21,217 bases of DNA from a plasmid. Location of the stretch: the sequence record NZ_CP073098.1. The stretch is one strand, 5' to 3'. Position numbers and translations under genes: made by a program. Under the pieces are notes generated by a model. The model made no database searches, was not told the DNA's origin, and worked only from the letters and a program-made list of their open reading frames with translations. Positions 1 to 21,217 of the stretch are shown here, in pieces (within the stretch, counting starts at the first letter, position 1; every line of letters begins with the position of its first letter).

Positions 1-1342
1 AGCGCCGCCGCTGCAACGTCTCTAGCGCGTCGCGCATGACCGCATCAGAATGGGCGTCTACGTCAAAGAGTGGGCGGGTGTTTTCGGTGTTTTCGCCGTG
101 GGCATCGGCTATTGCGGCAAGGTGATAGCTACCGTCATCGAGGGCTAAAACTTCCTTGCGCCATGCTTCGCGCAGCTCGTAGAGGGACTCTGGTTCGCGC
201 TTGGCATCGCGGGTTTCCAAGATTGCTTTTTGCCACAACTGGTTCATTTCCTGCACGCTCGGGCTGGCCTGACGCTGGGCAATATGTTCTTCGACCAGGC
301 GCTCATAGACGGGCAAAGCGTTAGCACGACGCTTGGAAAAAGCATCCATGAGTTCATCAGAAATACCGGCGACTTCCCAGGTCGGTTCCTTGCCGGAATC
401 GCGTTCACGTGGGACGAATTGCACGCCCATTTCGTTGGTCAACAAGGTCGTAAGTATCGAGTCAAAGCGGTGGGAAATCGTCTGATTGAACTTCATCAAC
501 GTGTAGCCATCAATCGACAACCAACGCCCATCCTCGGCCTGAACCTTGTTGGACACAAGCACATGCGAGTGCAAATCTGGGTCACCTGCACGGGTGTCAT
601 AGTGCTTAAATTCGGACGCAATAAGCCCTTTAGTTTTGACTTGTTCTGCGCCAGCTTTGCCCGAGCGAGTAAACAAAGCATTGTCTTCCGTCCACTCTAA
701 AGCCTCAGCAACCGCACGGTGATGAAGCTCCTCAATGCGACGGGAAGTGTCTTCATCGGCGAGTGCCCAGAGCACAGAAATCGACTTCGCAGGCGAGAAC
801 GTCAGGTCAAAACCAGCCACAGATTGACGCACTTCGTCTTTTAAACCGTTGACCCAATTAACGACTTCGCGGCCTGATTCTGGCTCGCGTCCGAACTCCT
901 CAATGAAGAATTCAGTGCCAATTTCTTGAGCCATGTCAGAGCGCTGCTCGCGCGTTAACAGCGTCTTTTCACGCTGGCGGTGCTTACGTTCTGCGTCGCG
1001 CAATGCCACCAAAACGGGGATGTCATTGGTGTAATTGGCAAACGGCCTACCCAACTGAATATCTTTGACTTTCGCGCCGTCACGCATGAGATTATCTGCG
1101 TCTGGATGCAAGCCTTCGCCGTAGAGTGCGGCCATGTTTTCTTCCGAAATTTCCGCGCCAGCGTGAATATCTTCGTTGTTAAAACCGGCTAGTCCGCGTC
1201 CAATCCAGCGCCCTGGCGGGGTGCCTTTCGCGGCGTAATACTTGCTCAAACTTGGTTCATCGGTTGGCCCGTCGTTGGTAGCCACAGAGCGCAAGAGGTA
1301 CTCGTACCCCGTTCCGCTGTGGACTACTCGCAGGCTCATCAT
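1..1342 (-). CDS. traA: Conjugative relaxase TraA (MOBF/TrwC family), N-terminal relaxase domain; partial, the gene runs off the left edge
   Basis: Minus-strand translation from ATG at 1342 (alt ATG 1351) gives MMSLRVVHSGTGYEYLL... with the relaxase 3-His motif HYDTRAGDPDLHSHVLVSNK. It is open to position 1, with 447 codons plus 1 base. No stop is reached. Confidence 0.85.
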   Translation of the reverse strand, partial: MMSLRVVHSGTGYEYLLRSVATNDGPTDEPSLSKYYAAKGTPPGRWIGRGLAGFNNEDIHAGAEISEENMAALYGEGLHPDADNLMRDGAKVKDIQLGRPFANYTNDIPVLVALRDAERKHRQREKTLLTREQRSDMAQEIGTEFFIEEFGREPESGREVVNWVNGLKDEVRQSVAGFDLTFSPAKSISVLWALADEDTSRRIEELHHRAVAEALEWTEDNALFTRSGKAGAEQVKTKGLIASEFKHYDTRAGDPDLHSHVLVSNKVQAEDGRWLSIDGYTLMKFNQTISHRFDSILTTLLTNEMGVQFVPRERDSGKEPTWEVAGISDELMDAFSKRRANALPVYERLVEEHIAQRQASPSVQEMNQLWQKAILETRDAKREPESLYELREAWRKEVLALDDGSYHLAAIADAHGENTENTRPLFDVDAHSDAVMRDALETLQRRR

Positions 1343-1351
1343 GTAGCCCAT

Positions 1352-1542
1352 GCTACCAGCCAAAACCCGATTAACACTAAGAGTGCATAAAGTGTGTTGT
1401 GAAAAGGGCGCTCGCGCTCGCTGCCGCAGGCTTTCAGCAAAGACTGCGGGGATAGTCCACTGATTGCTTCCGGTTACGCCGAACTTCCCGCGTGGTGTTT
1501 GTGTCAGGAGTGGGGCGGTGTGTTCGATGGCATTGTGGGTTT
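1352..1542. promoter_or_regulatory. Candidate oriT / traA promoter region. GC-rich, with inverted repeat CCGCAG-N14-CTGCGG (about 1423-1448) and GCGCTC direct repeats.
   Basis: MOBF relaxases usually nick an oriT immediately upstream of their own gene. Inverted and direct repeats are present, but no nic consensus could be verified. Confidence 0.3.
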
Positions 1543-1902
1543 ATGGTTACCGCAAGTAGAAGTTTGAGGAAGCGTCAGGAACTGCGTCAGCATCTCGAAA
1601 AAGGACAGCGTAAGCTGCGCGACCGCAAGAAGAAGCTCAACTCCCTGTTATCACTCATCGATCAGCGTGAGAATCTCAACGAGAAGATTGGTCACGCCTC
1701 GCGGGCAGTTATCGATCTAGGGGAACCTAAAGAACTCGTGCGCGATCTCGTCGGCGTGAGCCAGCGCGATTTCAACGACATGCTCAAGACTGCTAAGGAG
1801 TCCTCCCCTAGTGCGGAGGACTCCTCTGGAGACGATGAGTCGCATACTGTCGATGGTGAGCGCCAGTACAACGACGAAGCCGATGAGAATAGTAGCCAGT
1901 AG
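1543..1902 (+). CDS. Small basic/coiled-coil protein with putative HTH (ELVRDLVGVSQRDFNDMLK) and acidic C-terminal tail; divergent from traA
   Basis: ORF 1492..1902; the internal ATG at 1543 (MVTASRSLRKRQELRQ...) is preferred over upstream GTGs because the extra N-terminal residues are Cys/Trp-rich and unprotein-like. Start is uncertain. Confidence 0.5.
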   Translation: MVTASRSLRKRQELRQHLEKGQRKLRDRKKKLNSLLSLIDQRENLNEKIGHASRAVIDLGEPKELVRDLVGVSQRDFNDMLKTAKESSPSAEDSSGDDESHTVDGERQYNDEADENSSQ

Positions 1903-3092: not shown

Positions 3093-4052
3093 ATGCAGCC
3101 CCCACACACCCCAGACGAGTGGCGCACCAAACTCGAAGCAGCCAAAGAACTAGCCCGCCGGCAAGAACACGACGCCGCACAAGAACTCCTCCAAGCCCAA
3201 GACGTCGGCTACACCTCCAAACTCTTCGTCCAAGCACTCTTCCCCTACCGCAAAACCGAGGGAAACAACCGCACCGTCGAAACACCACAGGGAACAATCA
3301 CCATCCTCTCCCAACGAGGAGTCCCCTACGGCAAGTACCCACGCCTCATCATGGCCTACATCATCACCCGCGCCGTAGCTAATGCCGGACGCCTCAAAGA
3401 AGGCAAAATCACCCACGAAGAAGCCTGCCGCATTCCACTAGGCCACTCCATGAGCCACTTCCTCCAAGCAATCGGCATCACCGGACGCGGCACCGGCGGA
3501 GCAACCGGAAACCTGAAAAATATCCGCGAGCAACTCCTACGCATCGCAGGATCTTTCATCACAGTCCAAAGCGACGACGGGGTTCACGCACGCGGACACA
3601 ACACCCAAATACTGGAAGACTGGAACCTCTGGTTCGACTCCCGCGACCCCAACCAGGGAAGCTTCATAGAATCAGAACTAGTACTCACTCCCCAATTCTT
3701 CAAGCACATTGCCGAAGCGCCTATCCCCATCGACCTCAACGTCCTGCGCGAACTCAACAAACCACGTTCGATGGATATTTACATTTGGCTCACCGTAAAG
3801 CAATACTGGCTGGCGAAAAACAACCGCGAAACTTATACCTTCACCTGGGGCATGATCGCTGCCAATTTCGCCACCTCAGAGATAACCTCTACGGCCCAGA
3901 TGCGAGACTTTAGACGACGCACAAAAGAAGCAATAGAAGAAGTTGCAAAGGTATGGCCCTACTCGGGAATTGAAGCCGACACAGACGGAGTAACGGTCAC
4001 GAGAACTGCCCCATCAGTTCAGCAGAAGCCACATCGCCCCGAACTCGACTAA
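3093..4052 (+). CDS. repA: Plasmid replication initiator RepA (theta-type, iteron-associated)
   Basis: 319-aa ORF with AAAGGAG RBS at 3068. The C-terminal winged-helix-like segment (PIDLNVLRELNKPRSMDIYIWLTVKQYW) is typical of plasmid Rep initiators. Iterons and a DnaA box follow immediately downstream. Confidence 0.8.
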   Translation: MQPPHTPDEWRTKLEAAKELARRQEHDAAQELLQAQDVGYTSKLFVQALFPYRKTEGNNRTVETPQGTITILSQRGVPYGKYPRLIMAYIITRAVANAGRLKEGKITHEEACRIPLGHSMSHFLQAIGITGRGTGGATGNLKNIREQLLRIAGSFITVQSDDGVHARGHNTQILEDWNLWFDSRDPNQGSFIESELVLTPQFFKHIAEAPIPIDLNVLRELNKPRSMDIYIWLTVKQYWLAKNNRETYTFTWGMIAANFATSEITSTAQMRDFRRRTKEAIEEVAKVWPYSGIEADTDGVTVTRTAPSVQQKPHRPELD

Positions 4053-4359: not shown

Positions 4360-4755
4360 GGGTTTCACCTGCGGGTTCACCTATTTTCCCAGGTCGCTTA
4401 TAACTATATCCCTGTAGATCTATATCCCCAGCCGATCAACCAACAAAACCGTTCACTACGGGTTACGGTCTATGCTCCCGCCTCGCCTTGCGGCTCGTTG
4501 GGCTGCCGCCCAAATCAATAGATTTGGTTGCCACCACACACCCCACAACAACCGCACTCCTTCCACCCGCCGCGTGGCCGTTGTATCTCCTAAACTCTTG
4601 GACAAAGAAAAAGAGCGGCAAAGAATCAGAAAAAGGTAACTAAGTGCCCCAAGGACGCTACATCGACGACCCACGCTTTAGACGCGACCTCGAAGACATT
4701 CTAGCGCCTAGAAGCCCAAGAGGTCACGTCTCCACTAGAGCTTGGTTCCTCAATC

Positions 4756-5760
4756 ATGGAGTCCTACAGCCAGGCTCGCTACAACTACACCTTCCCCACT
4801 GTTCCTGCTGTTTCAGCACAGGACAGTAATCTGCGTGACTCCCACACCTGGAGTCGCTTCCTGGACTCGACTGCCGCCTACCCGGGCTGGGGAAAAGATG
4901 AGCTGGAACATCTCGCACAGTCTGCTGCACCACTCGACGCCGACAGCCTCAAGGCTAAAGGCTTAGCCTCTCACCGCTACCGCGTGAGCGCTAAAAGCCC
5001 TGATACGCGCCAGCGGCTACTAGAGACCATGCTGGAGCAACTCGACGACTCAAACCTCGTCGACGTTCACCTCACTCACACCATAGGCACATACCTCACC
5101 GCAAAAAGTGCCAAAACCAACTTTCGCACCCTTCCCCGAAGCGATAACACGACCCAACATTTTCGACTGACCATCAACACCACCGAGCCACTAGAAAGAA
5201 ACCTCAGCACCGCTACCCGCGCAGTGTTTACTGCCAGCACAAGTATTTTGCGCGAGACCACGCTGCAAGAGTGTGCCCGGACTGGACTTTTTGGAAATGA
5301 CGAAACCAACTCTGACGTCTTTCACGATAGGCAGAAGACCACCGCAGAGTTCTTTACCCACAGTGCGTCCCGCGTGTTTACTGGCCTATTTAAAGACCAG
5401 CCCGCCGAGCACGACGACATCACCGTTCCAGACTTTCTCAACCGCGAAGAACTTGACGCTATCGCCACCCGCCTGCACGTCTGCGCACACCAATGGATAG
5501 ACACTATCCAACCTGAGACCACCACCCCATATGGCCCGGAGGAACACAACAGTCTCGACACCGTGCTCTCACGCTTTCCCAACCATAAGACACGCCTTGC
5601 ACCAGGAGCACAAGCAAGCCTCGACTTCATTGAAAGCCTCGGACTAGACGAGACCCCTACCGGCTACCAGACCGTAGATAGCGCACACGACAACCAGACC
5701 GAGAACGCGGCACCAGAGCTAGAGGCAGACAACGAAGACGGCCAGGACGCCGAACTCTAA
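4756..5760 (+). CDS. Hypothetical 334-aa protein whose C-terminal motif and acidic tail are shared with TraA
   Basis: Long ORF; first in-frame ATG at 4756, with no convincing RBS. The C-terminus LAPGAQASLDFIESLGLDET plus acidic tail matches the TraA C-terminus LHPGAQASMDFLAGLGLGES. Confidence 0.6.
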   Translation: MESYSQARYNYTFPTVPAVSAQDSNLRDSHTWSRFLDSTAAYPGWGKDELEHLAQSAAPLDADSLKAKGLASHRYRVSAKSPDTRQRLLETMLEQLDDSNLVDVHLTHTIGTYLTAKSAKTNFRTLPRSDNTTQHFRLTINTTEPLERNLSTATRAVFTASTSILRETTLQECARTGLFGNDETNSDVFHDRQKTTAEFFTHSASRVFTGLFKDQPAEHDDITVPDFLNREELDAIATRLHVCAHQWIDTIQPETTTPYGPEEHNSLDTVLSRFPNHKTRLAPGAQASLDFIESLGLDETPTGYQTVDSAHDNQTENAAPELEADNEDGQDAEL

Positions 5761-5787: not shown

Positions 5788-6029
5788 TTAGTCGGTGCTA
5801 TCCCAGAAATCATCAGGGATAGCCTTCCTATCCAACTCGTCGAGATACTCTATAGCTTCCGCCTCACTCATGCCGTGTCTTACTAATTCATCAATCATGT
5901 AGTCGGTGGCAGCGTTTAACTCCTGCAGGGAAATATCCCGCAGACTCGCCCCCCGCCGCTGACCTTCCCCAGTAGTCGTAGTAGCGGGGGTCGGGGTGGT
6001 ATTTGGGTAGTCCTGCGAAGTGCTCATAG
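5788..6029 (-). CDS. Small hypothetical protein, Thr/Pro-rich N-terminus and acidic C-terminus (…DYMIDELVRHGMSEAEAIEYLDELDRKAIPDDFWDSTD)
   Basis: ORF 5788..6090; the internal ATG at about 6029 is preferred. Convergent with the preceding gene. No strong RBS. Confidence 0.35.
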
Positions 6030-6191
6030 CACTAAGGCAACCACACCCACGCCCGCTACGAAAGGCCAACCACACTAACCCTGTGGACAACCCACACGGA
6101 GCCAGTATGACTATCCACAGAAACCCATGCAGTCGCTATGTTCGATAGCGTTTAGGCCTCCATGTCGATATAGGCCTCTAGGCTTGAGGCC

Positions 6192-6857
6192 ATGGGCTTT
6201 TTAGAAAACCTCCGCAACCGCTACACCCCACGCACACCGGGCAAACCAGTCTTTGCCGTCATTGACACCGAAACCACCGGCTTTAACAAGCGCTACGACC
6301 GCATCATTGAAATCGCTGCCGTGCGCGCAGACAGCCACTTCAACCCCATCGACTCCTGGCACACACTGCTCAACCCTGACGGCAAGACCATTAAAAACTC
6401 CCACATCCACGGCATTACCAACGACATGGTGACAACCGCCCCAACGTTTAGCGAAGTATATGGCGACTTCACTAGCTACATCGACGGCATGCAGCTATTC
6501 GCGCACAACGCGCCGTTTGACTCAAAAATGATCGTTTCTGAGGTCGACCGTATGACCGGTGGAGACGATGACGAGGACGAGTTCTTCCCGTTTATTGACA
6601 CCATTGACCTTGCCAAGCAAATACTCGACCGTGGCCCCTACAACCTACCGGCACTCCTTGACCGCCTGGGACTGGACAATCCTGACGCCCACGCAGCAGT
6701 AGCCGATGCGACCGCCACAGTGAACATGCTCCACGCCCTCTTCGGGTCTCAGCGCGGCGAAATAGGACGCCAAATCCTGCACCAAGGCCAAGCATTCCAC
6801 GCCACCAACACCTGGCGTACAAGCCACGCCACCCCACTGCTCCCCCGCAACATATAG
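6192..6857 (+). CDS. DEDDh-family 3'-5' exonuclease (DnaQ / DNA pol III epsilon-like)
   Basis: Exo I motif VIDTETTG, Exo II motif HNAPFD, Exo III motif HAAVADATAT (H-x4-D). Confidence 0.85.
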   Translation: MGFLENLRNRYTPRTPGKPVFAVIDTETTGFNKRYDRIIEIAAVRADSHFNPIDSWHTLLNPDGKTIKNSHIHGITNDMVTTAPTFSEVYGDFTSYIDGMQLFAHNAPFDSKMIVSEVDRMTGGDDDEDEFFPFIDTIDLAKQILDRGPYNLPALLDRLGLDNPDAHAAVADATATVNMLHALFGSQRGEIGRQILHQGQAFHATNTWRTSHATPLLPRNI

Positions 6858-9846: not shown

Positions 9847-10827
9847 CTAGTTTTGGATCTCTTCTTGGCGAAGCTGATCGAAGACGCTACCGGCGTAATC
9901 CTCGTCGAGGATGAAACCGTTGTCGGTTTCTTTGAGAACTCCTTCTTTGACTCTGCGATCCCACCACATGATTAAGGATGCGAGCGTGTAGCCGAGTTCG
10001 TATTTCTGACCAGGAACTATAAATGAGTTCTTCATGAGTTCTGGGAAGGTTAGTATTTGTCCTTCTCGGCCTCCGTTGGCAAATGTTTCAGGATCGTGTT
10101 GGGGCTCAATATGCTGAACAATCCAGTACACAACGTCGTAAAAGGTTCGACTTTCAGGGCTATTCTCGGTGATTATTGGATTTAAATCTTTGGTGATGAG
10201 CTCTGTAGCCTGCTTTAAAAGCTTTTCGATTCCTGGTGTTGGAGTGGCAGATATCGCCTTTCGGAGAGGTTCAGAAAGTGAGCCATATCGAACACCATTG
10301 ATCCCGATGTTATCCGGCTCTGCATCTTCAACCGTTTCTTCTTGGTCTGGGTAGGGGCCTAGCTTAGACAAGAATGCGTCGACTGATTCTGCAACGGGCA
10401 TGATGATCCCATCGGGATCGGTATCCACGTACAATACGGCGCCTTCTGGGAAATCTGGCAAGCCGTAGTTAATGACAAAGCATTGATGCATTCCGTCTTC
10501 GCTAGCAGCCAAGAGAAGGACTTCTTCGGGAATCTCCCACTCATCCATAAGGAAGGTTGCGTAGTCAATCAAATCAACATGAGCGCCATTGCTTGCTGTG
10601 CCGTTGCCGAAGATATCTTCAACAACGACCTCCAAGGTGTCCCCATCAGGCAGGGAAATATCTGTAAGGAAGCATTTTTCTAGGTTGAGGATGCCGCCTC
10701 CAGTTTCTGAAAGCAGCATCTTGTAATCATCAGGTAGCTTTTTGCCAAGCTTGCTTTCAAATTCAAGGATGCGTTGACTGTCTGCTGGCTGTGCAGTGTA
10801 CTCAAAAAGGTTGGCGTAGTTTTTCAT
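9847..10827 (-). CDS. SUKH-1 (SMI1/KNR4) family immunity protein with an extra C-terminal domain of unknown function (326 aa)
   Basis: N-terminal signature ILEFESKLGKKLPDDYKMLLSETGGG (ExxLG..LP..Y..L....GG). It sits 9 nt downstream of the toxin gene stop. Confidence 0.8.
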   Translation of the reverse strand: MKNYANLFEYTAQPADSQRILEFESKLGKKLPDDYKMLLSETGGGILNLEKCFLTDISLPDGDTLEVVVEDIFGNGTASNGAHVDLIDYATFLMDEWEIPEEVLLLAASEDGMHQCFVINYGLPDFPEGAVLYVDTDPDGIIMPVAESVDAFLSKLGPYPDQEETVEDAEPDNIGINGVRYGSLSEPLRKAISATPTPGIEKLLKQATELITKDLNPIITENSPESRTFYDVVYWIVQHIEPQHDPETFANGGREGQILTFPELMKNSFIVPGQKYELGYTLASLIMWWDRRVKEGVLKETDNGFILDEDYAGSVFDQLRQEEIQN

Positions 10828-10836
10828 GATTGTCCT

Positions 10837-13800
10837 TTACGATTCGAGGGGTTTACTCCATAAAGCATATCCACCGGTATGTCGCACCTGTTGGTGGAGT
10901 TCCTTTGGTATTAGCTGCATGCGATTTTCGTCTTCGTGGTGGTGCCAAACAAGTTCATGCTTCTTACGATATTCACGATCGATTCCGAACTGTTTATCTG
11001 CTTGACGGATGTCTTTCCAGCTTTTTCCTGTGGGTTTTTTAAGTTTGATGTCCCCAACACCCTGTGTCGGGTGTGTATGTACATGCTTGTCAAAAACTGG
11101 AAAACCGCGTTCTGTAAATCGAATGTCCCCGTATTTTTCATGGAATCCTGGTGGCATCTTAGCTGGATCACCATTTCGCCAAATCCCGTCTGCAAATTGA
11201 GCGTTGATCGGATAGCGGTTAGATGCTCCAACTCTTTTGACAGTCGAGGGATATTTGCACTTGGAAGCAATGGTTGCGTAGGAGTGTGCTCCTGGCGCTG
11301 GAGTGTGGTACACACCTGAGCGAATGGTCATATGCTGGTTTCGGTAAGTAGCAACTCCCAGTCCAGCACAAGCGGCTGGTATTAGTGCGTCGTCGAGTGC
11401 AGCTTTGACCGGAGAATATTGAATAGCGCGTTTAATGGCGCCAGTTTTTCCAATCAGCTTACGGATTGCAGGTATAGCCTTGATGAGCTTTCCTGCTTTT
11501 CCTATAGGAAGTAGGCCGACTGCTGTCCATAAACATCCCGACACTTCACCGTGGAAGCATTTTAAGACATCGGTAACGCCAATGAGATCAAGGATGAGGT
11601 CTAGGCTTTCTTTTCCAATAGCGTCTTTAATTTTCTGTAAAACGCTTGTTGGTTCCGTTTTTATAAGGCCTTCGGCTTTTGCTGAGCGGGCTTGCTCTAG
11701 TTCTGCCATTTCTTTTTCCCAGGCGGCAAAATAAGCGTCATTAGCAGCTTGGGATGCTAAAGAAGCATCTTGCCCTGCAGCGTTTGCTGATTGACGTGCA
11801 GAAGCTGCGGACGTAGCCGCGGCCTGTGCCGCTGATTGTGCAGTCGCTGCGTAGGACGCAGCTTGATCTGCATTGGATTCAGCCTGATTTGCATCTGCCT
11901 CTGCTGAATTTGCTGCCTGATGGGCTCGCTGTTGTTGTTGGAGAGCGAAGGAAAGTGCTTTATCAGCAGACGCAACATGATTTTGAGCCTGTTGCGCTGA
12001 TTGCTGTGCGCTTCCTGCCCAACGTTGAGCTTGACGTGCATATTCTGCAGCGCGCTGCGCGTCACCAGTTGCCTGTTTGTGCGCCTGCTGAGCATTAGCT
12101 GCTTGTTGTGACGCTATTTCTGCGGCATACTGTCCAGCACTGAGTAAAGCGTCTATTTCTGCATTATGAGCATTGCGTTGCTCGTCCAGCATCGCACGGC
12201 GATACTGCTCAACTGAGATGAATTCATTGAGCTGCTGGCGATCGCCAGTAACTGCCGCCTCAGCTGCAATCTTTACTTCTTCACCGCCAGTATCAGTTAA
12301 TGCATAAGCCTGCTGAAGTTGATCTAAGTAGCGGGCTTTTTCGTAGCCTCCCTTGTTGATGAATTCGTCCAACGCGGTAAACGTTCCCTCTTTGAGGGCC
12401 GCGTCAGCTGCAGTTTGAACCTGCGGTCCTGCTTCATCTCTTAAAGCCCAGGCTTGTTCAATAAGTCCAGGAATACGCATTTCTGGAACTGTCACGTTGA
12501 CGAATTCATCGATAGTTACGTCATCTTCATAGCCGGCTTCATCAGCAGCGTTACGTATTTCTTCGTTGGGATCGTTCAGTGCCCAATGGCTGACTAGATT
12601 TAGGTTGTCTTCATATACTGCATCTGGGTATGCATTAAAAGCATATTCAATAAGGTCTTCTTCATTGTTTCCCGAAAGTGCCACTTTGGCTGCCCCTGCT
12701 ACAGACGGGGTACCAACCTGCGCCGCGCTTAGCGCAAGTTGGCGAAGATCAGATATTGCGTTTTCGGAAGGAGTAAATTCGCTTTCGTCGGCTGGAAGAG
12801 AAGAACGTATCTCTTCCATTTTCTGAGTTAGATCATTTCTGCGTTGTTCTTCTTGATTCCTATTTGCGTCTGTGGTGTCTTGAACTTCGCGTGCAAGTCG
12901 AGCTTGGTCTTTAAGGAAATCCCGTTCTGTGCGAAGTCGTTCTTCGGCAGCGGTTAATGCTTGCTCGTGGATAGATTTAGCAAGCTGGATGTTGTTTCGT
13001 GCTCGTTCTGCAGATTCACTAGAAAGCTGAGCGTGTTGCCCTGCAAATTGTGCTGCATAGTGAGCATTTCCTGCTTCACGAGCAGCATCATCTGCTGCTC
13101 GTGCTGATTTTTCGGCATGCTCTGCAGCTTCTCTAGCAGCTTTGCGGGTTTGCTCTACCAGGCTACGGATAGTGGCGACTATCCGGTCAACTTCGTTAGC
13201 TGCTGCCCTGGCACGTCCTGCTGCTGCTCTAGCGCGTGCGGCGCCTGCGCGAGCTTCATTCGCCGCCTGCTGGCTAACGCCTGCTGCATTAGCTGCATCT
13301 GAGGCTGCAGCTGCGGCTGCGTCCGCGTTACGGGCAGCTGATCCTGCTGCCTGACCTGCAGATTGAGCATGTCCTGCAGCTTCCTCCGCGTAGCGATAGG
13401 CCTGTTGGGATTGTTGTGCAGCCTGGGCTGCATTGCGGGCATTCTCGGCAGCTACCCGCGCCCCACGTGCTGCAGCGGCATCGTAAGCTGCAGCATTTGC
13501 GGCAGAAGCTGCTTGTGCTGCTGCGGACTGAGCGCGAGCAGAAGCTGCCGCAGCTCTTGATAAAGCAGCAGCAGTCTCTTGAAGGGCAGCTCGCGCCTCA
13601 TGAGATGCGGCTACAGCTTGATCTGCCATATTGGCTGATTGAGTAGCTAATTTTCCAGCTGCTGTTGCAGCATTACCTGCTCTTTGTTGCGCAGAATCTG
13701 CTGCTAAAGCTTCATCGCGTGAACGTTCTGTTGCAACTCGTGCAGCTTCTGCGGCTCGCGCTGCACGATCCGCTTGCATCCATGCTTTGTTATTTTCCTC

Positions 13801-14580
13801 TGTAGCTGTCTTAGATTCTTTAATCGTAAGATCTACCAGTTGGGATACCGTCATATGCTCAGCATCTTGATCAGCGGCCACATACTGCCCATAACGAAGA
13901 AATTCGTCAATTGCTGTATCTGTGCCAATTCGGAGTGCCTCAGATGCGTTCGCGGAAACAGTTGGTAATTCTGAGTCTACGAGCTCGTAGACTTCCCTGC
14001 GCTTATCGTTTGCCCGAGCCTCATCCTCACCCTGGGCGGCAAATTCACTGAGAGCTTCTACTGTGTCCTCGCGCAGAGCTTTATCAGCAGCGGATTTTAG
14101 ACTTGTTCCTTCTTCAGCTTGAGCTGCCTGCCACGCTTGAGCTCTATCGTCTTTACGTTGAGCTTCTTGCCATCCAGTATCAATAAACTTGCTTATCTCA
14201 TCAGTCGAACCCGATTGAAGGAGACGATTTGCTTGCTCTTGTAGCTGCTGTCCACCAACTGTTGACAAGGTAGTAAGTATTTGGCGCAGATCTTGTAGCT
14301 GTGCTTCTTCGCGACCGCCATTAACATACGCAGACCACTCGTGTTCCGATCCGCTTAGTGCAGTAATTGCTGCTTGACGCGAAGACTCGAAAGAAGTATC
14401 GAGCATGCTCACCGCGAAGTCACGTGCGTCTTGTTCTTGTAGAGCTTGCTCGGAAACTCTTAAACTGTCAGTTTGAGCTATAGCATTTGCTGAAGAAAAC
14501 GTTGTTCCCAAGATAACTGCAAGTAAGACGCAAACAATGCGAACCATTTTTAATTGCAGAGGAGTTGTTTTGCGTGGCAT
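10837..14580 (-). CDS. Secreted polymorphic toxin: Sec signal peptide, ALF-like repeats, two Ala/Gln-rich helical blocks, pre-toxin region, and a C-terminal WHH-type HNH/EndoVII nuclease domain
   Basis: 1247-aa ORF. N-terminal signal MPRKTTPLQLKMVRIVCVLLAVILGTTFSSANAIAQ. Seven [AT][LI]xEF[ILA] repeats, e.g. TAIDEFLRYGQY, TALDEFINKGGY, QLNEFISVEQY. C-terminal HELVWHHHEDENRMQLIPKELHQQVRHTGGYALW. Confidence 0.85.
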   Translation of the reverse strand: MPRKTTPLQLKMVRIVCVLLAVILGTTFSSANAIAQTDSLRVSEQALQEQDARDFAVSMLDTSFESSRQAAITALSGSEHEWSAYVNGGREEAQLQDLRQILTTLSTVGGQQLQEQANRLLQSGSTDEISKFIDTGWQEAQRKDDRAQAWQAAQAEEGTSLKSAADKALREDTVEALSEFAAQGEDEARANDKRREVYELVDSELPTVSANASEALRIGTDTAIDEFLRYGQYVAADQDAEHMTVSQLVDLTIKESKTATEENNKAWMQADRAARAAEAARVATERSRDEALAADSAQQRAGNAATAAGKLATQSANMADQAVAASHEARAALQETAAALSRAAAASARAQSAAAQAASAANAAAYDAAAARGARVAAENARNAAQAAQQSQQAYRYAEEAAGHAQSAGQAAGSAARNADAAAAAASDAANAAGVSQQAANEARAGAARARAAAGRARAAANEVDRIVATIRSLVEQTRKAAREAAEHAEKSARAADDAAREAGNAHYAAQFAGQHAQLSSESAERARNNIQLAKSIHEQALTAAEERLRTERDFLKDQARLAREVQDTTDANRNQEEQRRNDLTQKMEEIRSSLPADESEFTPSENAISDLRQLALSAAQVGTPSVAGAAKVALSGNNEEDLIEYAFNAYPDAVYEDNLNLVSHWALNDPNEEIRNAADEAGYEDDVTIDEFVNVTVPEMRIPGLIEQAWALRDEAGPQVQTAADAALKEGTFTALDEFINKGGYEKARYLDQLQQAYALTDTGGEEVKIAAEAAVTGDRQQLNEFISVEQYRRAMLDEQRNAHNAEIDALLSAGQYAAEIASQQAANAQQAHKQATGDAQRAAEYARQAQRWAGSAQQSAQQAQNHVASADKALSFALQQQQRAHQAANSAEADANQAESNADQAASYAATAQSAAQAAATSAASARQSANAAGQDASLASQAANDAYFAAWEKEMAELEQARSAKAEGLIKTEPTSVLQKIKDAIGKESLDLILDLIGVTDVLKCFHGEVSGCLWTAVGLLPIGKAGKLIKAIPAIRKLIGKTGAIKRAIQYSPVKAALDDALIPAACAGLGVATYRNQHMTIRSGVYHTPAPGAHSYATIASKCKYPSTVKRVGASNRYPINAQFADGIWRNGDPAKMPPGFHEKYGDIRFTERGFPVFDKHVHTHPTQGVGDIKLKKPTGKSWKDIRQADKQFGIDREYRKKHELVWHHHEDENRMQLIPKELHQQVRHTGGYALWSKPLES

Positions 14581-14592
14581 GCTCTTAGCCTC

Positions 14593-15486
14593 TTACTTTC
14601 CTGGAAGTGCTAACGCTTGGTCAATAAACCACACAGATTCAGCACTTTTGGATGAAGTTGTCGTTACGCCTTGGGAACCTCGTGTTGTCAGAACGCGAGA
14701 CTGGTTTAGAGCCGAAGACAATCGCGTTCCCGTAGGAGTTTCACTGACTGCGGAAGGACACCACGTAGCTCCTTGGGGAGAAGGGGAAGACAGTGCTGAT
14801 ACCGTTCCATTTGTTCGCATCGTCAGATATACGCCAGGATATGCAGCGGCCTCAAGCGATATGCATTGGGAGCCGTCTAAAGCTGGGACTACTTTAAATG
14901 AACCATCAAGTCGATCGTTAAACTTTGAGTTTCTATCAAGCGTGGATAGCTCAACCCCAGACCAAGAAAGACGAAGAATTCTTCCTGCTGCATTGCGCCC
15001 TGCAGAACGCAAGCTAACGACATTCGGGGACTCAGCGTCGATATCTAGATTTCCGGTTGCGGCTCCGGTAGAAGTCGCAACCGGCGTAACTTGAATTTCC
15101 ACAACGGTAGAACCACGGCGATCAACATCGATGTTTTGTACACCTCCGGGTTTAACGACACGCTGCCAGTAGACATCACCGCCAGGGAGTTTAAAAGCAA
15201 CCGCCACCGGTACTTTAAGCTCATTAACAATTCCGTAGGAACCGGTAATGTTAATCGCAACCCAACCAGTCTGCTTCGTCAAGAAAAAACAAGCTCGAGA
15301 GCCAGACAGGGAAGACGAATCGACACGAATGTATTCAGAAGACGTACCGCATTCCTTTTGGATAATCCCGCCATCGCCGGCAGTGATATCCACATCGTCT
15401 GCGCCCAATGCAGGAGATACGCCTAGATTCATAAACGCTAAACCAGAAAGTACGCCTGCAAAAAGACGTTTAAGAGAAAAGTTCAT
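14593..15486 (-). CDS. Secreted protein (signal peptide MNFSLKRLFAGVLSGLAFMNLGVSPALGADD), unknown function; second gene of the toxin operon
   Basis: ATG at 15486 with AAGGAAA RBS. The upstream GTG at 15510 is less likely. A 12-nt gap separates it from the toxin start. Confidence 0.7.
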   Translation of the reverse strand: MNFSLKRLFAGVLSGLAFMNLGVSPALGADDVDITAGDGGIIQKECGTSSEYIRVDSSSLSGSRACFFLTKQTGWVAINITGSYGIVNELKVPVAVAFKLPGGDVYWQRVVKPGGVQNIDVDRRGSTVVEIQVTPVATSTGAATGNLDIDAESPNVVSLRSAGRNAAGRILRLSWSGVELSTLDRNSKFNDRLDGSFKVVPALDGSQCISLEAAAYPGVYLTMRTNGTVSALSSPSPQGATWCPSAVSETPTGTRLSSALNQSRVLTTRGSQGVTTTSSKSAESVWFIDQALALPGK

Positions 15487-15515
15487 TATTTTCCTTAAAT
15501 TGAAGTACACCCTGC

Positions 15516-16820
15516 CTACTTAGACAGGGGAATATAGGTGGTTTTCGAAGAGTCAATGGTCGATCGCAAAGTGCCGGCGAACTTTCCCCAGATCTGCGAA
15601 CCAATGTGATCGGAGCTAAAAGGGCCCTGAACTTTAGAGGTTTGAGTTGGACCAAAAGATTCAATAATGAGCCGTACCCACGTTTTATCCGAGTCGGTAT
15701 AGGACGCCTTTGTCTCCTCATTGTCAAAAATGAGATCGTCTTCATCCGCAGAAGGCTCCGTAACCTCGTCGAAGCGAACATTGAGAACTCGGCCATCGCC
15801 TTCTGGATGATCATCGGTAGTGACTAAGGAGAAACCGTCATCAGAAATCCGATCCACGGTTACTTTGTTTTTAACTCCGCCCATACCTGTAAAAGTGCAT
15901 ACGGAGCCCTCGGTAATTTCGTCAGGACACCCTGAGAGAGGAAAGTACTTATCCATGTTTTGGATAACCTCTCGATAGACACCCGTTGCATGCCACCGCT
16001 TAAGTTCCGACTTGGAAAAGAGAGGGTAAACCTGACGGTAGCTAGAGATTTTCTTTTTATCGAACGAAGCTAAAGCCTTGCCAGTAGGTTCAAAATACTG
16101 AATAGATCCGCCCTGGAAATCCTGCTTTATGCCTCCGCCTGCAGCGTATTTTTCCGATGTGGGAAACTTCAACGAGCTACGCTCCCATCCCTGACTTCCC
16201 CAGAAATCCCGGATGGGGCCAGAAATACTATGGACCCCGCTAGCTTGTGACCAGTAGATAGATCCGCCTTGAAAATGGTTGTAGCGCCCAGTCTTTTCTG
16301 GGGTAAGCAACTCATCAGTGGTTGGGTACCCTAGCTCACCGGTCTCCCAGCCTTGCTGAGCCCATTTATCGCGAATGCCTCCCCACACTTGATGAGCATC
16401 AGTCTCTGGCGACCAGTAGATAGACCCGCCCTGGAAATGGTTAAACCGCCCCTTGCCATCAGGGGTCTTCAACTCATCGGTAATGGGATATCCCAAGGCT
16501 GCGCCTTCCCAGCCAAGATCTCCCCACTTATTGCGGATACGCCCACCCACCTGGTGAGCAATTCCATTATCTACACCAGCATGCCAGTAAATGGAGGCAT
16601 CCTTAGCGAACACCTGGAACCGACCATTATTTTTAGCTACACGCTCATCAGTTGTAGCGTCACCAAAAGTCTTCCACCCACCAAGCCGGTGATACGCCTC
16701 TTCAATACGACCACCAATCCAATGACCGTGAAAAACCTTGGCACTTGAAACACCAGCACCAGCAAAAGTAACACTTGCACATACCGCAATAGTTGCAGTC
16801 AACTTCTTAGCGAATTTCAT
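15516..16820 (-). CDS. Secreted LGFP-repeat protein (4 N-terminal LGFP cell-wall-binding repeats plus a C-terminal domain of about 200 aa of unknown function)
   Basis: Signal peptide MKFAKKLTATIAVCASVTFAGAGVSSA. Repeats such as LGYPTTDE…GRYNHFQGGSIYWS occur four times. ATG at 16820 with AAAGGG RBS. Confidence 0.8.
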   Translation of the reverse strand: MKFAKKLTATIAVCASVTFAGAGVSSAKVFHGHWIGGRIEEAYHRLGGWKTFGDATTDERVAKNNGRFQVFAKDASIYWHAGVDNGIAHQVGGRIRNKWGDLGWEGAALGYPITDELKTPDGKGRFNHFQGGSIYWSPETDAHQVWGGIRDKWAQQGWETGELGYPTTDELLTPEKTGRYNHFQGGSIYWSQASGVHSISGPIRDFWGSQGWERSSLKFPTSEKYAAGGGIKQDFQGGSIQYFEPTGKALASFDKKKISSYRQVYPLFSKSELKRWHATGVYREVIQNMDKYFPLSGCPDEITEGSVCTFTGMGGVKNKVTVDRISDDGFSLVTTDDHPEGDGRVLNVRFDEVTEPSADEDDLIFDNEETKASYTDSDKTWVRLIIESFGPTQTSKVQGPFSSDHIGSQIWGKFAGTLRSTIDSSKTTYIPLSK

Positions 16821-17116
16821 CCGTAGCCCTTTCACGCCACCGCTTTTAAGAACAGCTGAACACCAGATAATTGGCAGCCGGAGTTAGGGTATCGCTACGG
16901 TTATACACAGTCCATAGATATGTGTTTAGAAACTTTCTCTAAAACTAAATAATTCGCTAAAACGCCAGATAGACACATGTACAGACTCGATTTTCGCGTC
17001 TCGTGAAAGGCGGGCAGAATAACCTATATAAGGGGTATATATAACTCTAAACTAAACATTTACACTGCACATTCAGGCTGGGCAGTGTACACATTGCACG
17101 TCAACGATGCACTTAG

Positions 17117-18740: not shown

Positions 18741-21217
18741 CTAGAGCTCTGGGCCAGTATCTTGTTGCTGCTCTTCTAGGTCTGGGGCGTAGTCGGTATT
18801 GTCGTAGTCCTCGTTATCGTCAGATGCGTCCTCGTAGCTATCGTCGGATTCGCCGAGTCCGAGTCCTGCCAAGAAGTCCATGCTTGCCTGTGCTCCGGGG
18901 TGGAGTTCATAGTCGTCGTCCTCGACTACATCATGAACCGGGGCGTTGCCGTTGTCGACAAAAATCCTGTACTTGCTCAACGGGTCTACATCGTCGGCAA
19001 TCTTATGCTCAATCTCATCGGGCAGGTAGTCGGTGTCCTGGTAGACCTCTGGGTCATCGAACTCGGCCTGCTTCTGGTTTTCCGTCGCGTTGGTATCAAC
19101 GGTGTCTGCCGCATCCTCATAGGTGTCAAGGTCAGCGGTGTCGTTGTGTTCTGGCTGGGTAAACGCCGTGGTGGAAAGTGGCGCGTGCTGGACTGCGTGC
19201 GGGTTATGGCGGCGCAGCCACTCGTCAAGTTCCATGTCGGTGCGTGAGGTAATCGGCGGGAGCTGATTACGATGCCCGGTATCCAGCCGGTCAAACTCTA
19301 GGTCGAGTCGGTAGCGGATAAGCCGGGCAATGTCTTCGGCGTTGTCGGTATCAACCGTGGCGTGTTGCATGGCTGCTCGCGGGTCGATTCCGGCATCAAT
19401 CATCTTCGTCCACGCATGGCGAATAGGCTTAGTGCCCTCGTCGGATTCTTCTAGCTGCTTTATCTGATGTGCTGGCAGGGTGTCGATCCAGTCGGGTAAG
19501 TAGGCGTCGATGAAGTCGTTGATAGCGTCATCGCGGCCAAGGTTCCACAGGCGGGTGATGCGCTCGGGGCTGGTTTGTTCGTCGATGACTTCGCGGACAA
19601 TATCGTGGGCGGCGCGTGGGTTGGTGTCTTTGGATACGACATAGTTAAAGACGTCTTGTGCTCCAGGCGCGTTTGCGTTGCCGATGTAGTGGTAGTGACC
19701 ATCTTCGGCATCCGGGTCAAGGATATGTTCGGTGACGGCATAGATGTGGTTGGCAAGCTTGCCACGGGTCAGTGCCACGTACATGCCTGCTCGGTCAACG
19801 GACTGGTCGATTACCGCGCGGGTGACATCGACGGTTGTGCCCTGGGCGCGATAGACGGTGGCCGCGTAACCGAGTTGAACGTTCTCGCGCACATAATCAG
19901 CCGGGAGGTGTTTGATATGACCTTTATCGTCGGTGGCGATGATGCTTCCATCGTCGCGAATATCAGCCAGGGTGAGCAGTTCACCGTTGGTTACTCGCGT
20001 GGTTGCCCCGGTGTTCTGGTCGCTGAAAACGCGGTTTTGGCGCGTGAGGATAGTATCTCCCAGACCAGCGCTCTCGCCGCGCGCGATAGTAATCGTGTGC
20101 TCGTTGTCGACCTCTCCGCAGGCAATACGGTGGGAGCGAATCATGGTGTTTAGTGCCACCACGTCTTTGTTGGTGGCTGCGATAAGCAGGCTGTTATGGC
20201 CGTTGGCAACATCGGAAAGGTAGTCGCTTACGGCACTTTCCAGCATGCTAGAACGCCCACCGCCGTGAACCCAGCCGCGCTGATTGTAGAAGTCGAACGT
20301 GGAGGTATCACCCTCGCGCAGGCGCAAGCTGGCGGCAGATTGCTCACTGTCACCGCCGAAGCGAATGACTTCGGAAAGCTGGTTATCGGCGCGCTCGTTT
20401 TCTTTGACCATCGCACCAAAAAGCCCGCCGTTTTCGACTGCGCCGAGCTGTTTGTGGTCGCCGACAAAGCGCACGACTGCGCCGGCGTCTTCGGCGATTT
20501 CAATCAGTGAGCCGATGTTGGGGGTCGAGACCATGCCGGCCTCGTCGACCAAAATCATGTCGCCGGGATTAATCTCAACCGGCAAATCTTTCACGCTATA
20601 ACCATCCTTGTTGGGGTGGTTTCCGCGCCACGTAAAGGTCAGTTTATCGACTGTTAGTGCCTGGGTTCCGAGGTCTTGGGAGAGTACGTCAGCGGCTTGT
20701 GCCGAGGGTGCTAGGCCGATGACTTTGTTGCCTTTTTGTGCCCATACGTCAGCAACCAAGCGCAGCGATGCGGTCTTACCGGTACCGGCAGGACCGACAC
20801 CAGTAGCAGCGAGTGTGCCGCAGTTAAGCAGGTAGCGTGCCATTGCTTCCTGGCCGGAGTTGAGCCTAAAACCGGCCTGCTTTTCGTGAGCATCAACAGC
20901 TGAATCAATAGCTGCTGAGTCGGCAAATTCCGCTACTGGTTCATCTAGTGCGGCGAGTGCTTTAGCTTCGGTATCCAAGATTTCCTGGGTGGTAAAAAAC
21001 TGCGAATCGGCGAAACTATCGCGCGACAAACCACGCTGGGTTTTAAGCCGTTCAGGCAAGTCCAGCATCTCGAAATCGTTAAGCGCAATGGCTTGTTCTT
21101 CCACAATTAGCTCGGTCATGGAGTCGTGGATGATGTTGCGTTCAGTCACTGATTCGAAGCGATATGCCTGAAGTTTTTGCGCCACAGCCGTTGAAATATG
21201 GGACTTGCGGAAATAGG
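18741..21217 (-). CDS. traA: Conjugative relaxase TraA, helicase (AAA_30/UvrD_C-like) and C-terminal acidic-tail part; partial, runs off the right edge
   Basis: Walker A GPAGTGKT; the RecD-like helicase region spans the middle of the fragment. The ORF is open to the window end and frame-compatible with the N-terminal fragment at 1..1342. Confidence 0.9.
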   Translation of the reverse strand, partial: YFRKSHISTAVAQKLQAYRFESVTERNIIHDSMTELIVEEQAIALNDFEMLDLPERLKTQRGLSRDSFADSQFFTTQEILDTEAKALAALDEPVAEFADSAAIDSAVDAHEKQAGFRLNSGQEAMARYLLNCGTLAATGVGPAGTGKTASLRLVADVWAQKGNKVIGLAPSAQAADVLSQDLGTQALTVDKLTFTWRGNHPNKDGYSVKDLPVEINPGDMILVDEAGMVSTPNIGSLIEIAEDAGAVVRFVGDHKQLGAVENGGLFGAMVKENERADNQLSEVIRFGGDSEQSAASLRLREGDTSTFDFYNQRGWVHGGGRSSMLESAVSDYLSDVANGHNSLLIAATNKDVVALNTMIRSHRIACGEVDNEHTITIARGESAGLGDTILTRQNRVFSDQNTGATTRVTNGELLTLADIRDDGSIIATDDKGHIKHLPADYVRENVQLGYAATVYRAQGTTVDVTRAVIDQSVDRAGMYVALTRGKLANHIYAVTEHILDPDAEDGHYHYIGNANAPGAQDVFNYVVSKDTNPRAAHDIVREVIDEQTSPERITRLWNLGRDDAINDFIDAYLPDWIDTLPAHQIKQLEESDEGTKPIRHAWTKMIDAGIDPRAAMQHATVDTDNAEDIARLIRYRLDLEFDRLDTGHRNQLPPITSRTDMELDEWLRRHNPHAVQHAPLSTTAFTQPEHNDTADLDTYEDAADTVDTNATENQKQAEFDDPEVYQDTDYLPDEIEHKIADDVDPLSKYRIFVDNGNAPVHDVVEDDDYELHPGAQASMDFLAGLGLGESDDSYEDASDDNEDYDNTDYAPDLEEQQQDTGPEL

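Follow-up and report, generated by a model that had tools for sequence, protein, structure and literature searches.

A C-terminal module shared by a MOBF relaxase and unrelated Corynebacterium proteins: a candidate recruitment signal for type IV coupling proteins

Two proteins encoded on the plasmid NZ_CP073098.1, the relaxase TraA and a protein of 334 residues (ORF334), resemble each other at their C-termini. This raises the question of why two such different proteins should end alike, and in particular whether the common end could recruit both to the coupling protein (T4CP) of a type IV conjugation system. The window, i.e. the whole stretch of DNA analysed (21,217 nucleotides), is an entire circular plasmid, mobilisable and opened within traA. 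In tblastn, residues 1–416 of the TraA of L003 align with window positions 1249 to 2 and residues 418–1202 with positions 21215 to 18849; traA spans both ends of the window because the circle was cut inside the gene. The 5' third (1..~1351, minus strand) encodes the TrwC relaxase domain (Pfam TrwC, 3.7e-84, positions 2–1351). The 3' two thirds (18741..21217, minus strand) encode an SF1B helicase (Pfam AAA_30, 2e-57), the C-terminal region and the shared module, in a frame that is open to the window end. Rejoined across the circular junction, the reconstructed ORF has ~1,275 codons. The NCBIfam models TraA_Ti and RecD2 match TraA partially and below their curated cut-offs. With both a TrwC domain and a P-loop SF1B (RecD-like) helicase, the protein is classified on its predicted domains as a MOBF relaxase-helicase of the TraA/TrwC type. 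A T4CP gene is absent from the whole plasmid.

The module comprises ~54 residues: an amphipathic, helix-like motif A[QR]xx[LM]DF[LI]xxLGL, an acidic linker of 29–37 residues free of Lys and Arg, and a C-terminus of the form x-E-L. In the translation of traA, the 20-residue motif LHPGAQASMDFLAGLGLGES (core AQxSMDFLxxLGL) is encoded at 18846..18905 (minus strand) and is followed by a 34-residue acidic tail, DDSYEDAS...APDLEEQQQDTGPEL, ending in GPEL (18744..18845, minus strand; 15 Asp/Glu, no Lys or Arg; stop codon 18741–18743). The corresponding motif of ORF334, LAPGAQASLDFIESLGLDET, is encoded at 5596..5655 (plus strand) and is the sole segment that this protein has in common with TraA; its 34-residue tail, PTGYQTVDS...APELEADNEDGQDAEL, ends in DAEL (5656..5757, plus strand; 10 Asp/Glu, no Lys or Arg; stop codon 5758–5760). 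The ORF334-family gene occupies 4644..5760 (plus strand) and is read here from an ATG at 4756, whereas intact relatives have 372 residues; comparison of reading frames places the 1-nt deletion that shortens the window copy near 4701. One such relative (P0150, 372 residues) is 98% identical to ORF334, and the tail is kept across the 372-residue family. ORF334 has no known domain. An AlphaFold2 model of the family, built from an alignment of 17 sequences, has a mean pLDDT of 41, with the module region below 50, and as a poor model is weak evidence on the fold. Several ORF334 copies are decayed, some down to module-only ORFs, and a 5' frameshift affects the window copy; some hosts can therefore do without the gene, which counts against a coupling-protein signal. 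Module-only 'proteins' of 58–100 residues, found in a word-indexed search, were considered as a separate family and rejected, as they are gene-caller fragments or decayed 3' ends of ORF334, TraA or SNF2 genes.

The similarity of the two window proteins was measured with BLASTP and with 5000 composition-preserving shuffles. BLASTP returned one significant common segment (22 of 51 residues identical, E = 4e-7). The 60-residue modules scored 96 against 29.7 ± 5.7 for shuffles, none of which scored as high. A shared module far beyond chance is thus established, but the term 'near-identical' used in an earlier note on this DNA for motif plus tail was too strong: the motifs are identical at 13 of 20 positions (not 15) and at 43 of 60 nucleotides (72%, not about 80%), and the tails put at 33 and 36 acidic residues are each 34 residues long and are acidic by composition, not made up wholly of acidic residues. 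The tails alone scored 35 against 28.3 ± 5.4, a value reached by 644 of the 5000 shuffles, so composition accounts for their likeness, with the exception of the equal length and a terminal EL. That the tails are no closer than composition predicts, and that EL is all the two extreme termini have in common, are observations that count against a coupling-protein signal.

Beyond this pair, a search for the motif on further non-relaxase proteins, as the earlier note had suggested, brought out a third unrelated carrier. The module is borne by three architectures: MOBF TraA (TrwC plus AAA_30), an SNF2/ResIII helicase of ~2,040 residues, and the ORF334 family; the motif segment is likewise the only region common to ORF334 and the SNF2 protein. 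Searched with a profile, 1.84 billion representative proteins yielded 12 true matches, all of these three kinds. The two strongest long matches (P0022 and P0029) were rejected as false positives, being PASTA-repeat proteins. Among 185,579 species genomes, 13 module loci were found, of which 12 are in Corynebacterium; the thirteenth lies on a contig of 2.7 kb and low coverage that bears the label Parvimonas sp. and is probably contamination. On these sequences, the module appears to be confined to Corynebacterium. The motif is present in one to three copies, arranged in tandem in the TraA proteins of L003 and L018, in P0030 and in the SNF2 tail P0024. The duplications are in frame, and the final copy always lies ~29–37 residues ahead of the stop. 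Pfam holds no family for the module or the tails even at E ≤ 10, searches of NCBIfam and PDB sequences with the module returned no relative, and no description of it was found in a literature search.

Non-conservation of the motif in homologues, which the earlier note had named as evidence against its reading, is not what was found. Over 25 distinct motif DNAs, pN is 0.22 and pS 0.55, a difference from which purifying selection on the module peptide follows, and reading frame and stop position are preserved in all three carrier contexts. The TraA gene of L003 is a natural chimera, which is of the window type until motif copy 3 and thereafter matches the 3' end of the L001 SNF2 gene, the spacer and repA continuously. 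The module has thus been exchanged by recombination, with the crossover falling within the motif. Its DNA context is not fixed, since it adjoins parA in the window, repA in L003 and a T4SS in L020.

The wider TraA family was surveyed using 120 homologues that are 37–92% identical over the aligned part. An ending of the G-x-E-L type is found in about half of them: 57 of the 120 end in [DE]L, 38 of these 57 with Gly at position −4, and 81 of the 120 in total end in [DE][LMF] or [DE]xW. The same terminus occurs in homologues without detectable DNA similarity. TraA of pNG2, a different replicon, ends ...QNTLDVLDSLGI...acidic...SPEL, with a diverged module. Pentapeptide repeats precede the tail in many homologues. 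The strict motif is limited to one TraA subclade. A family-wide upstream version, [QRH]xx[LMIV]Dx[LIV], suggested by eye from GRSLLDRL and two occurrences of GHSLVDHL, was rejected, as it was found in 24 of 120 homologues against 14 and 5 in control windows, which is no enrichment. The restriction of the strict motif and the lack of enrichment of the looser one also count against a coupling-protein signal.

The genomic surroundings of these genes are those of conjugation systems. Chromosomal TraA homologues adjoin a T4CP of the VirD4/TraG type (PF02534 + PF12696), DUF4913 and cell-wall hydrolases, and TraA proteins with the G-x-E-L type of ending adjoin VirD4/TraG-type coupling proteins on ICEs and conjugative plasmids. 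The strict-module traA genes of L019, L020 and L005 face a cluster of T4CP, DUF4913 and hydrolase genes, and the SNF2 gene L022 is located on the 37.8-kb contig of L020. Module-bearing TraA and SNF2 genes thus occur on T4CP-carrying plasmids. Genes for a ~210-residue acidic-tailed protein (by the T4CP) and a ~120–135-residue protein are conserved beside traA in plasmids and ICEs.

Some toxins echo the terminus of their own relaxase. On an ICE of C. aquilae, two Fic proteins carry the tail of the TraA of the same element (EDYDEWD...DYEL), with 0 of 5000 and 11 of 5000 shuffles scoring as high. In C. bovis, the PIN toxin of one element has an eight-residue extension, HHDDGHGL, that resembles the end of its own TraA (SYDDGYGL) and is missing from PIN orthologues elsewhere. 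Matches at four or more of the last six residues were obtained for 2 of 112 comparisons within an element and for 0 of 560 across elements (p ~0.03). These parallels concern short tails and few elements, a point against a coupling-protein signal. The toxin tails make a partner in replication or partition less likely. The RHH protein, SSB and ParA, offered in the earlier note as alternative partners, gained no specific support, with two replicon types carrying the module and no SSB gene within the window. RepA (PF04796) was considered as a common partner because the first carriers were all rep_cluster_1173 plasmids; it was rejected on the diverged module of the pNG2 TraA, which has another replication protein, and on the terminus shared by ICE TraAs.

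The module is real, portable and C-terminal, is selected at the protein level, is exchanged by recombination and is associated with T4CP-bearing elements. We propose, with a probability of roughly 0.55, that it serves as a portable and disordered C-terminal signal by which its carriers are recruited to the VirD4/TraG-type T4CP in type IV conjugation systems of Corynebacterium. The known signals of VirB/VirD4-type systems are positively charged, opposite to the module tail, which counts against the proposal. The signal is best read as an undescribed acidic type of C-terminal recruitment for actinobacterial type IV conjugation systems. TraA, covalently attached to the nicked plasmid strand, would dock on the T4CP via its tail, which would let a conjugative plasmid or ICE in the same cell mobilise a T4CP-less plasmid such as the window. 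The SNF2 helicase and the ORF334 family, and elsewhere the Fic and PIN toxins, would have gained their tails when their genes recombined with traA at its 3' end; the tail would draw these proteins to the machine that recruits TraA, and they would probably enter recipients together with it. From sequence comparison, we infer that the partner is the T4CP or a T4CP-bound adaptor and that docking leads to translocation; every comparative test run agrees with the shared translocation or docking signal put forward in the earlier note, whose mechanism stays at the level of this inference. A broader formulation is somewhat more tentative, at slightly less than even odds: that conjugation substrates of Corynebacteriales are recognised by an acidic, disordered G-x-E-L tail, with one to three AQxSLDFLxxLGL helix copies added in some lineages, and that proteins capturing the traA 3' end (SNF2 helicases, ORF334, Fic and PIN toxins) join the transferred set. 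Precedents for the elements of this scheme exist in that BID signals are common to Beps and relaxases (PMC10025392), toxins of TA systems with fused relaxase-type signals are conjugative T4SS substrates (PMC5675462) and recombinogenic shuffling with relaxase genes may spread secretion signals (PMC11288057).

The module could instead dock its carriers on a partner other than the channel, such as a chaperone, a relaxosome accessory protein, the ~210-residue protein by the T4CP or the small protein with an acidic tail that is encoded upstream of traA, without translocation. The conservation of the ~210-residue and ~120–135-residue proteins beside traA favours this, the tandem arrangement of motif copies hints at an oligomeric partner, and the coupling protein TraD of the F plasmid contacts the relaxosome protein TraM through an acidic tail (PMC7434980). 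Yet relaxosome contact would be of little use to ORF334, an SNF2 helicase or Fic and PIN toxins unless transfer followed, and the candidate partners carry acidic tails themselves and are therefore unlike receptors for one. We regard docking of this kind as unlikely. It is less probable still, at about the level of a long shot, that the acidic tail acts alone as a DNA mimic, an autoinhibitory tail or a C-terminal degron, governing DNA binding, restriction evasion or turnover. The strongly acidic composition without Lys or Arg would suit such a role, as would the pentapeptide repeats (a DNA-mimic fold) that precede the tail in many TraA homologues, and many DNA-binding proteins are regulated by acidic C-terminal tails (PMC7434980); what it leaves unexplained is the conserved hydrophobic motif, its tandem copies, the conserved free terminus, and toxins that bind no DNA but copy the tail of their own relaxase.

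A replisome-docking peptide, which would bring DNA-processing enzymes to clamp or SSB partners as a beta-clamp-binding motif or a mimic of the SSB tail, has a very small chance of being correct. The bacterial clamp-binding motif (QL[SD]LF or QxxLxF) follows the hexapeptide pattern Qxx[LM]x[FL]. QASMDF of TraA and QASLDF of ORF334 fit this pattern, in a tail that is likewise disordered; DNA is the substrate of both TraA and the SNF2 protein, and a C-terminal clamp motif is used by C. glutamicum NucS (PMC6159515). This first idea, which arose from the QxxMxF pattern, was downgraded when Gln was found replaced by Arg in natural copies (GARASLDF in CP068163, pET44827 and L018; also Arg in P0021) and relaxase-like tails were found on Fic and PIN toxins, which have no reason to bind the clamp. 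Unlike a clamp motif, the module extends into F[LI]xxLGL and is coupled to an acidic tail with a conserved x-E-L terminus, so that the motif itself always stops short of the C-terminal end; our literature search found no relaxase clamp motif or other link between the two. That the module is functionless, i.e. a neutral by-product of recombination joining the 3' ends of plasmid genes or a reflection of a cis-acting role of the shared DNA, finds some encouragement in the breakpoint inside the motif of the chimera, in the frequent adjacency of repA and in the module-only remnants of ORF334, but is just as improbable given a peptide under purifying selection while synonymous sites diverge, a frame and stop kept in three contexts, in-frame tandem duplications, recurrence of G-x-E-L without detectable DNA similarity and a DNA context that varies.

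Little has been established on how conjugation machines of Gram-positive bacteria, and of actinobacteria above all, recognise relaxases and other proteins. If the broader formulation holds, actinobacterial (monoderm, mycolate) systems would have their first defined type IV secretion signal, with a charge opposite to that of the classical VirB/VirD4 signal, and it could help to predict and engineer the delivery of proteins from one corynebacterium to another. Among skin and clinical corynebacteria (C. striatum, C. diphtheriae, C. jeikeium and C. tuberculostearicum), plasmids of this group are carriers of resistance genes, and a candidate signal that is short, portable and easily mutated offers a handle on the mobilisation of small T4CP-less plasmids. 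It may also allow prediction of which helicases, toxins and uncharacterised proteins travel with DNA into recipients. It would be a live example of signal spread by relaxase-gene recombination, which has been proposed for Gram-negative systems and rarely caught in action.

Acidic tails that dock on a partner through the last hydrophobic residue and the free carboxylate are known from SSB, from TraD of the F plasmid and from gp2.5 and gp4 of phage T7, the last two being unrelated proteins whose common tail serves a single partner. The TraD tail that binds TraM resembles the module tail in being acidic, disordered and C-terminal, but in the F plasmid it sits on the coupling protein and not on the substrate (PMC7434980). 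The TraD, SSB and T7 tails end in Phe, unlike the E-L of the module, and have no AQxSLDFL motif. Among secretion signals, the E-block of Legionella Dot/Icm effectors is likewise C-terminal and rich in Glu, and the substrates that bear it are many and unrelated (PMC10025392). Here too, Glu-rich blocks occur in the last ~30 residues (APDLEEQQQD, APELEADNED and PLDEEQEDD), a match to the E-block that is compositional only. The E-block belongs to type IVB systems and has no conserved upstream hydrophobic motif or terminal dipeptide, whereas the coupling proteins associated with the module are of the VirD4/TraG type, with Gram-positive-style hydrolases, and not Dot/Icm. XVIPCD of Xanthomonas T4SS toxins is also a conserved C-terminal unit on otherwise unrelated proteins, and it binds VirD4 (PMC10025392); it differs in length (~120 residues), in having several motifs and a Gln-rich tail, and in its absence from relaxases, and has no similarity to the module. 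The bipartite BID signal of Bartonella Beps, VbhT and alphaproteobacterial relaxases shares more features: it is C-terminal, is common to relaxases and unrelated element proteins including Fic and TA toxins, can be present in multiple copies and has been gained by fusion on repeated occasions (PMC10025392; PMC5675462). BID, which operates in VirB/VirD4 systems of Gram-negative bacteria, is a folded domain of ~100 or more residues followed by a tail of positive charge, whereas the module has ~54 residues, is acidic with an x-E-L end, belongs to Actinobacteria, has no BID sequence similarity and is not evidently folded (the ORF334-family copy alone was modelled, at very low confidence). The module is best read as a functional analogue, and not a homologue, of the Bartonella BID signal.

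All but one of the 22 PLSDB records matching the window came from Corynebacterium, and the window is a Corynebacterium plasmid. It is the entire circle of 21,217 bp, cut within traA: residues 1–416 of the TraA of C. tuberculostearicum CTNIH20 (locus L003) aligned to minus-strand positions 1249 to 2, and residues 418–1202 to 21215 to 18849, at 92–94% identity, with positions 21216, 21217 and 1 forming the junction codon. The rebuilt TraA (~1,275 aa) comprises a TrwC relaxase domain (3.7e-84; 1–1351, minus strand) followed by an AAA_30 SF1B helicase domain (2e-57) and the tail (18741–21217, minus strand). Other genes encode an RHH protein (2400–2717), RepA (3093–4052; PF04796), a resolvase and ParA. 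The toxin locus (9847–16835, minus strand) contains a gene for a 1,247-aa ALF-repeat protein that ends in a WHH/colicin-DNase nuclease. An immunity gene of the SUKH (SMI1/KNR4) type lies directly downstream of it, and AbfB-like and LGFP-repeat proteins are encoded upstream. No coupling protein (T4CP) or T4SS gene was found across the window; the plasmid is therefore mobilisable and not self-transmissible.

The C-terminus of TraA is LHPGAQASMDFLAGLGLGES, followed by 34 residues to the final GPEL, and that of the protein of ORF 4756–5760 (ORF334) is LAPGAQASLDFIESLGLDET, followed by 34 residues to the final DAEL. The earlier note had given 15 of 20 identical motif residues, about 80% DNA identity and acidic tails of 33 and 36 residues; by exact count 13 of 20 residues and 43 of 60 bases are identical and each tail has 34 residues. 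Asp and Glu number 15 (TraA) and 10 (ORF334) in the tails, and Lys and Arg are absent from both. The remainder of the two proteins is unrelated, as had been claimed: the module was the sole significant shared segment (BLASTP, E=4e-7). The 60-residue modules aligned with a score of 96, against 29.7 ± 5.7 in composition-preserving shuffles (0/5000), whereas the 34-residue tails alone did not rise above shuffles (644/5000). The specific similarity is therefore in the motif; composition, length and the final EL are common to both tails.

The strict module was defined as A[QR]xx[LM]DF[LI]xxLGL followed by an acidic tail that closes with xEL. Searches were performed by tblastn against plasmids, by word index over 5.8 billion proteins, by HMMER over 1.84 billion representative proteins and by a scan of one genome per species (185,579 species). 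All four agreed: the strict module occurs in Corynebacterium alone, on only three protein architectures, which are unrelated to one another. The first is MOBF TraA in several lineages (window, pCs-Na-1, pET44827, CP068163 and FRC0402_p2), in which the preceding 100–300 residues are completely different. The others are a ~2,040-aa SNF2/ResIII helicase annotated 'SNF2-related' (its gene is frameshift-split in pTP10) and the ORF334 family, which share only the module with each other (E=1e-6). The shared tail is real and broader than the TraA/ORF334 pair. Zero entries in Pfam, NCBIfam or the PDB matched the module. Two long PASTA-repeat proteins (P0022 and P0029) that scored highest in the profile search were rejected as false positives through repetition, their scores being built from 10–17 weak repeat matches (ELAPGSAVDYVRSLGPE). 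A Corynebacterium-type SNF2 tail on a 2.7-kb contig of 'Parvimonas sp. C2' (NZ_JAYKBP010000010.1, L017; coverage ~2) is probably assembly contamination.

The true start of the ORF334-family gene is a GTG at 4644 (region 4644–4760, plus strand) with an RBS-like aaaaagg. The 334-aa ORF is a 5'-frameshifted member of a 372-aa family, in which the loss of one nucleotide near 4701 has turned cta gAg cgc into cta gcg c; it is either a pseudogene or the product of a sequencing error. No domain was detected in the family with Pfam or NCBIfam. C. jeikeium-like strains carry module-only ORFs of 65–66 aa (MLSRF...AEL; L007 7887–8201, L024 10001–10201 and L008–L010) on chromosomal or other contigs; these are what is left of an ORF334 gene after decay. 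The remnants neighbour Mrr, RNase_T and MmeI-type genes, and P0168 is an Mrr_N–ORF334 chimera. In the window (6192–6857, plus strand), L008–L010 and L024, an RNase_T/DnaQ-like 3'–5' exonuclease gene lies downstream of the ORF334-type one, with a small antisense ORF between the two in the window (5788–6090, minus strand) and L008–L010. The small ORF is also present in L025–L027, where no exonuclease was seen within the region examined.

The distance from the final motif copy to the stop was always about 29–37 residues. Three tandem 30-residue repeats occur in the CTNIH20 TraA, three motif copies in L018, two each in P0030, P0009 and P0012, and two in the SNF2 tail P0024. For the 20-codon motif (25 distinct DNA versions) pS was 0.55 and pN 0.22, and for the motif core synonymous and non-synonymous divergence were 0.49 and 0.15. 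In AlphaFold2 output for the ORF334 family (mean pLDDT 41, too poor to use) the motif was helical and the tail had no structure, which is weak evidence. Motif position, tandem copies and pN/pS, and weakly the helix prediction, point to a functional peptide.

The terminus was surveyed in TraA homologues of Corynebacterium and Dietzia, 120 in all; over their aligned parts most share 37–50% identity with the window protein (the closest up to 92%). A final [DE]L was present in 57, with G at −4 in 38 of these (GPEL, GLEL, GFEL, ...), and 81 of the 120 had a final [DE][LMF] or the Dietzia ending ...PDLW. The TraA of pNG2, a different replicon, has a diverged module (...QNTLDVLDSLGI...acidic...SPEL). 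The terminal signature is a family-wide relaxase feature, so TraA is its likely original home. Most likely the SNF2 and ORF334 genes captured the strict module from one TraA subclade, the direction of transfer being putative. A looser upstream motif across the TraA family was rejected, as enrichment over controls was absent. Many Corynebacterium TraAs (among P0035–P0149) have pentapeptide repeats (PF00805, PF13599, PF13576) inserted after the helicase and ahead of the C-terminal tail. The pentapeptide-repeat domain is a DNA-mimic fold; we know of no description of it on relaxases.

The L003 traA is of window type until its third motif copy, beyond which the SNF2 3' end, spacer and repA of L001 match it without a break over 1.57 kb. 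The match switches exactly at that copy, which puts the crossover within the motif; the chimeric tail is SNF2-type (...QPLDEEQEDDNGYEL). [quoted passage not shown]

A conserved T4CP cluster was found beside TraA homologues encoded on the chromosomes of C. aquilae, C. sp. SCR221107 and C. pseudogenitalium, and beside those on a 79-kb Dietzia and a 55-kb C. bovis contig. It encodes a VirD4/TraG-type coupling protein (PF02534 and PF12696), DUF4913, hydrolases (M23/SLT or M23/NlpC-P60) and a protein of ~560 aa that weakly resembles HerA/VirB4. In L019, L020 and L005 it is convergent to a strict-module traA (tblastn 57% identity; Pfam TraG-D_C 9.8e-29). L020 shares a 37.8-kb contig with the SNF2 gene L022, and the same strain holds L011, a window-like traA plasmid contig without a T4CP. 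A ~180–220-aa acidic-tailed protein (...ADEQVAEM, ...DSDQTTL, ...NEQGLTL) with no Pfam domain adjoins traA in L019 (8214–8882), L020 (6887–7513), L034 (17148–17771), L035 (13706–14359) and L011 (8239–8781); its gene lies between traA and the DUF4913/T4CP genes in all four T4CP-bearing loci, and no T4CP was found in L011. Divergently upstream of traA, on plasmids, the 79-kb Dietzia contig and the C. bovis element, is a conserved ~120–135-aa acidic-tailed protein (window 1492–1902, plus strand; L004 120–515; L020 1741–2286; L037 9378–9746; L038 6370–6777), misnamed '3-deoxy-D-manno-octulosonate 8-phosphate phosphatase' in RefSeq, which may be a relaxosome accessory protein.

Independent parallels come from toxins encoded beside traA in two other elements. 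In the C. aquilae ICE (L034 4720–9235) a 462-aa protein of unknown function and Fic proteins of 649 and 394 aa are consecutive upstream of traA, the Fic genes directly so. All three have strongly acidic tails, and those of the Fic proteins resemble that of their own TraA (TraA ...EDYDEWDGDVLEDADDYEL; Fic394 ...ENYDEYDDDVSASEGEDYEL; Fic649 ...DDYEDWDEDSEDL...; shuffle tests against TraA, 0/5000 for Fic394 and 11/5000 for Fic649); Fic394 and TraA both end in DYEL. A PIN (VapC50-like) toxin adjoining traA in the C. bovis element (L038 12296–12865) has an eight-residue C-terminal extension, HHDDGHGL, close to the TraA end SYDDGYGL (DDGHGL versus DDGYGL); its orthologues on other plasmids (L028, L032) end before the extension. 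At least four of the last six residues matched the TraA terminus in 2 of 112 same-element and 0 of 560 cross-element pairs, a small control.

On the best-supported reading, the module acts at the C-terminus as a signal that recruits its carriers to the coupling protein of these conjugation systems. The signal would be ancestral on the relaxase and would then have been copied onto further element proteins, which would be co-transferred. Of the shared signal proposed in the earlier note, the module has proved real and wider than could then be seen; its binding to the T4CP and its translocation are steps that we infer, and that putative reading is the best available. The common partner may instead be another one, for example an adaptor or an accessory protein of the relaxosome, in which case the module would still be a docking unit. 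Binding of the motif to the beta-clamp is weakened by natural Q-to-R variants and by the relaxase-like tails of the toxins. If the tail were purely a DNA mimic or a degron, the conserved hydrophobic motif and its tandem copies would be left unexplained. Purifying selection on the motif and the family-wide TraA terminus speak against a neutral scar of recombination.

In other systems, plasmid-encoded proteins are known to accompany the DNA (PMC8406263). No defined signal for this actinobacterial group was found in the literature. The concept of a C-terminal signal is already known from BID, E-block and XVIPCD (PMC10025392); the module is alike in concept but homologous to none of them, and its charge is opposite to that of the VirB/VirD4 signal. 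In Bartonella, Methylobacterium and Chelativorans, Fic and PezT toxins encoded beside a relaxase gained a BID signal of the relaxase type, which made them substrates for conjugative T4SSs (PMC5675462). The Corynebacterium Fic and PIN tails mirror these cases.
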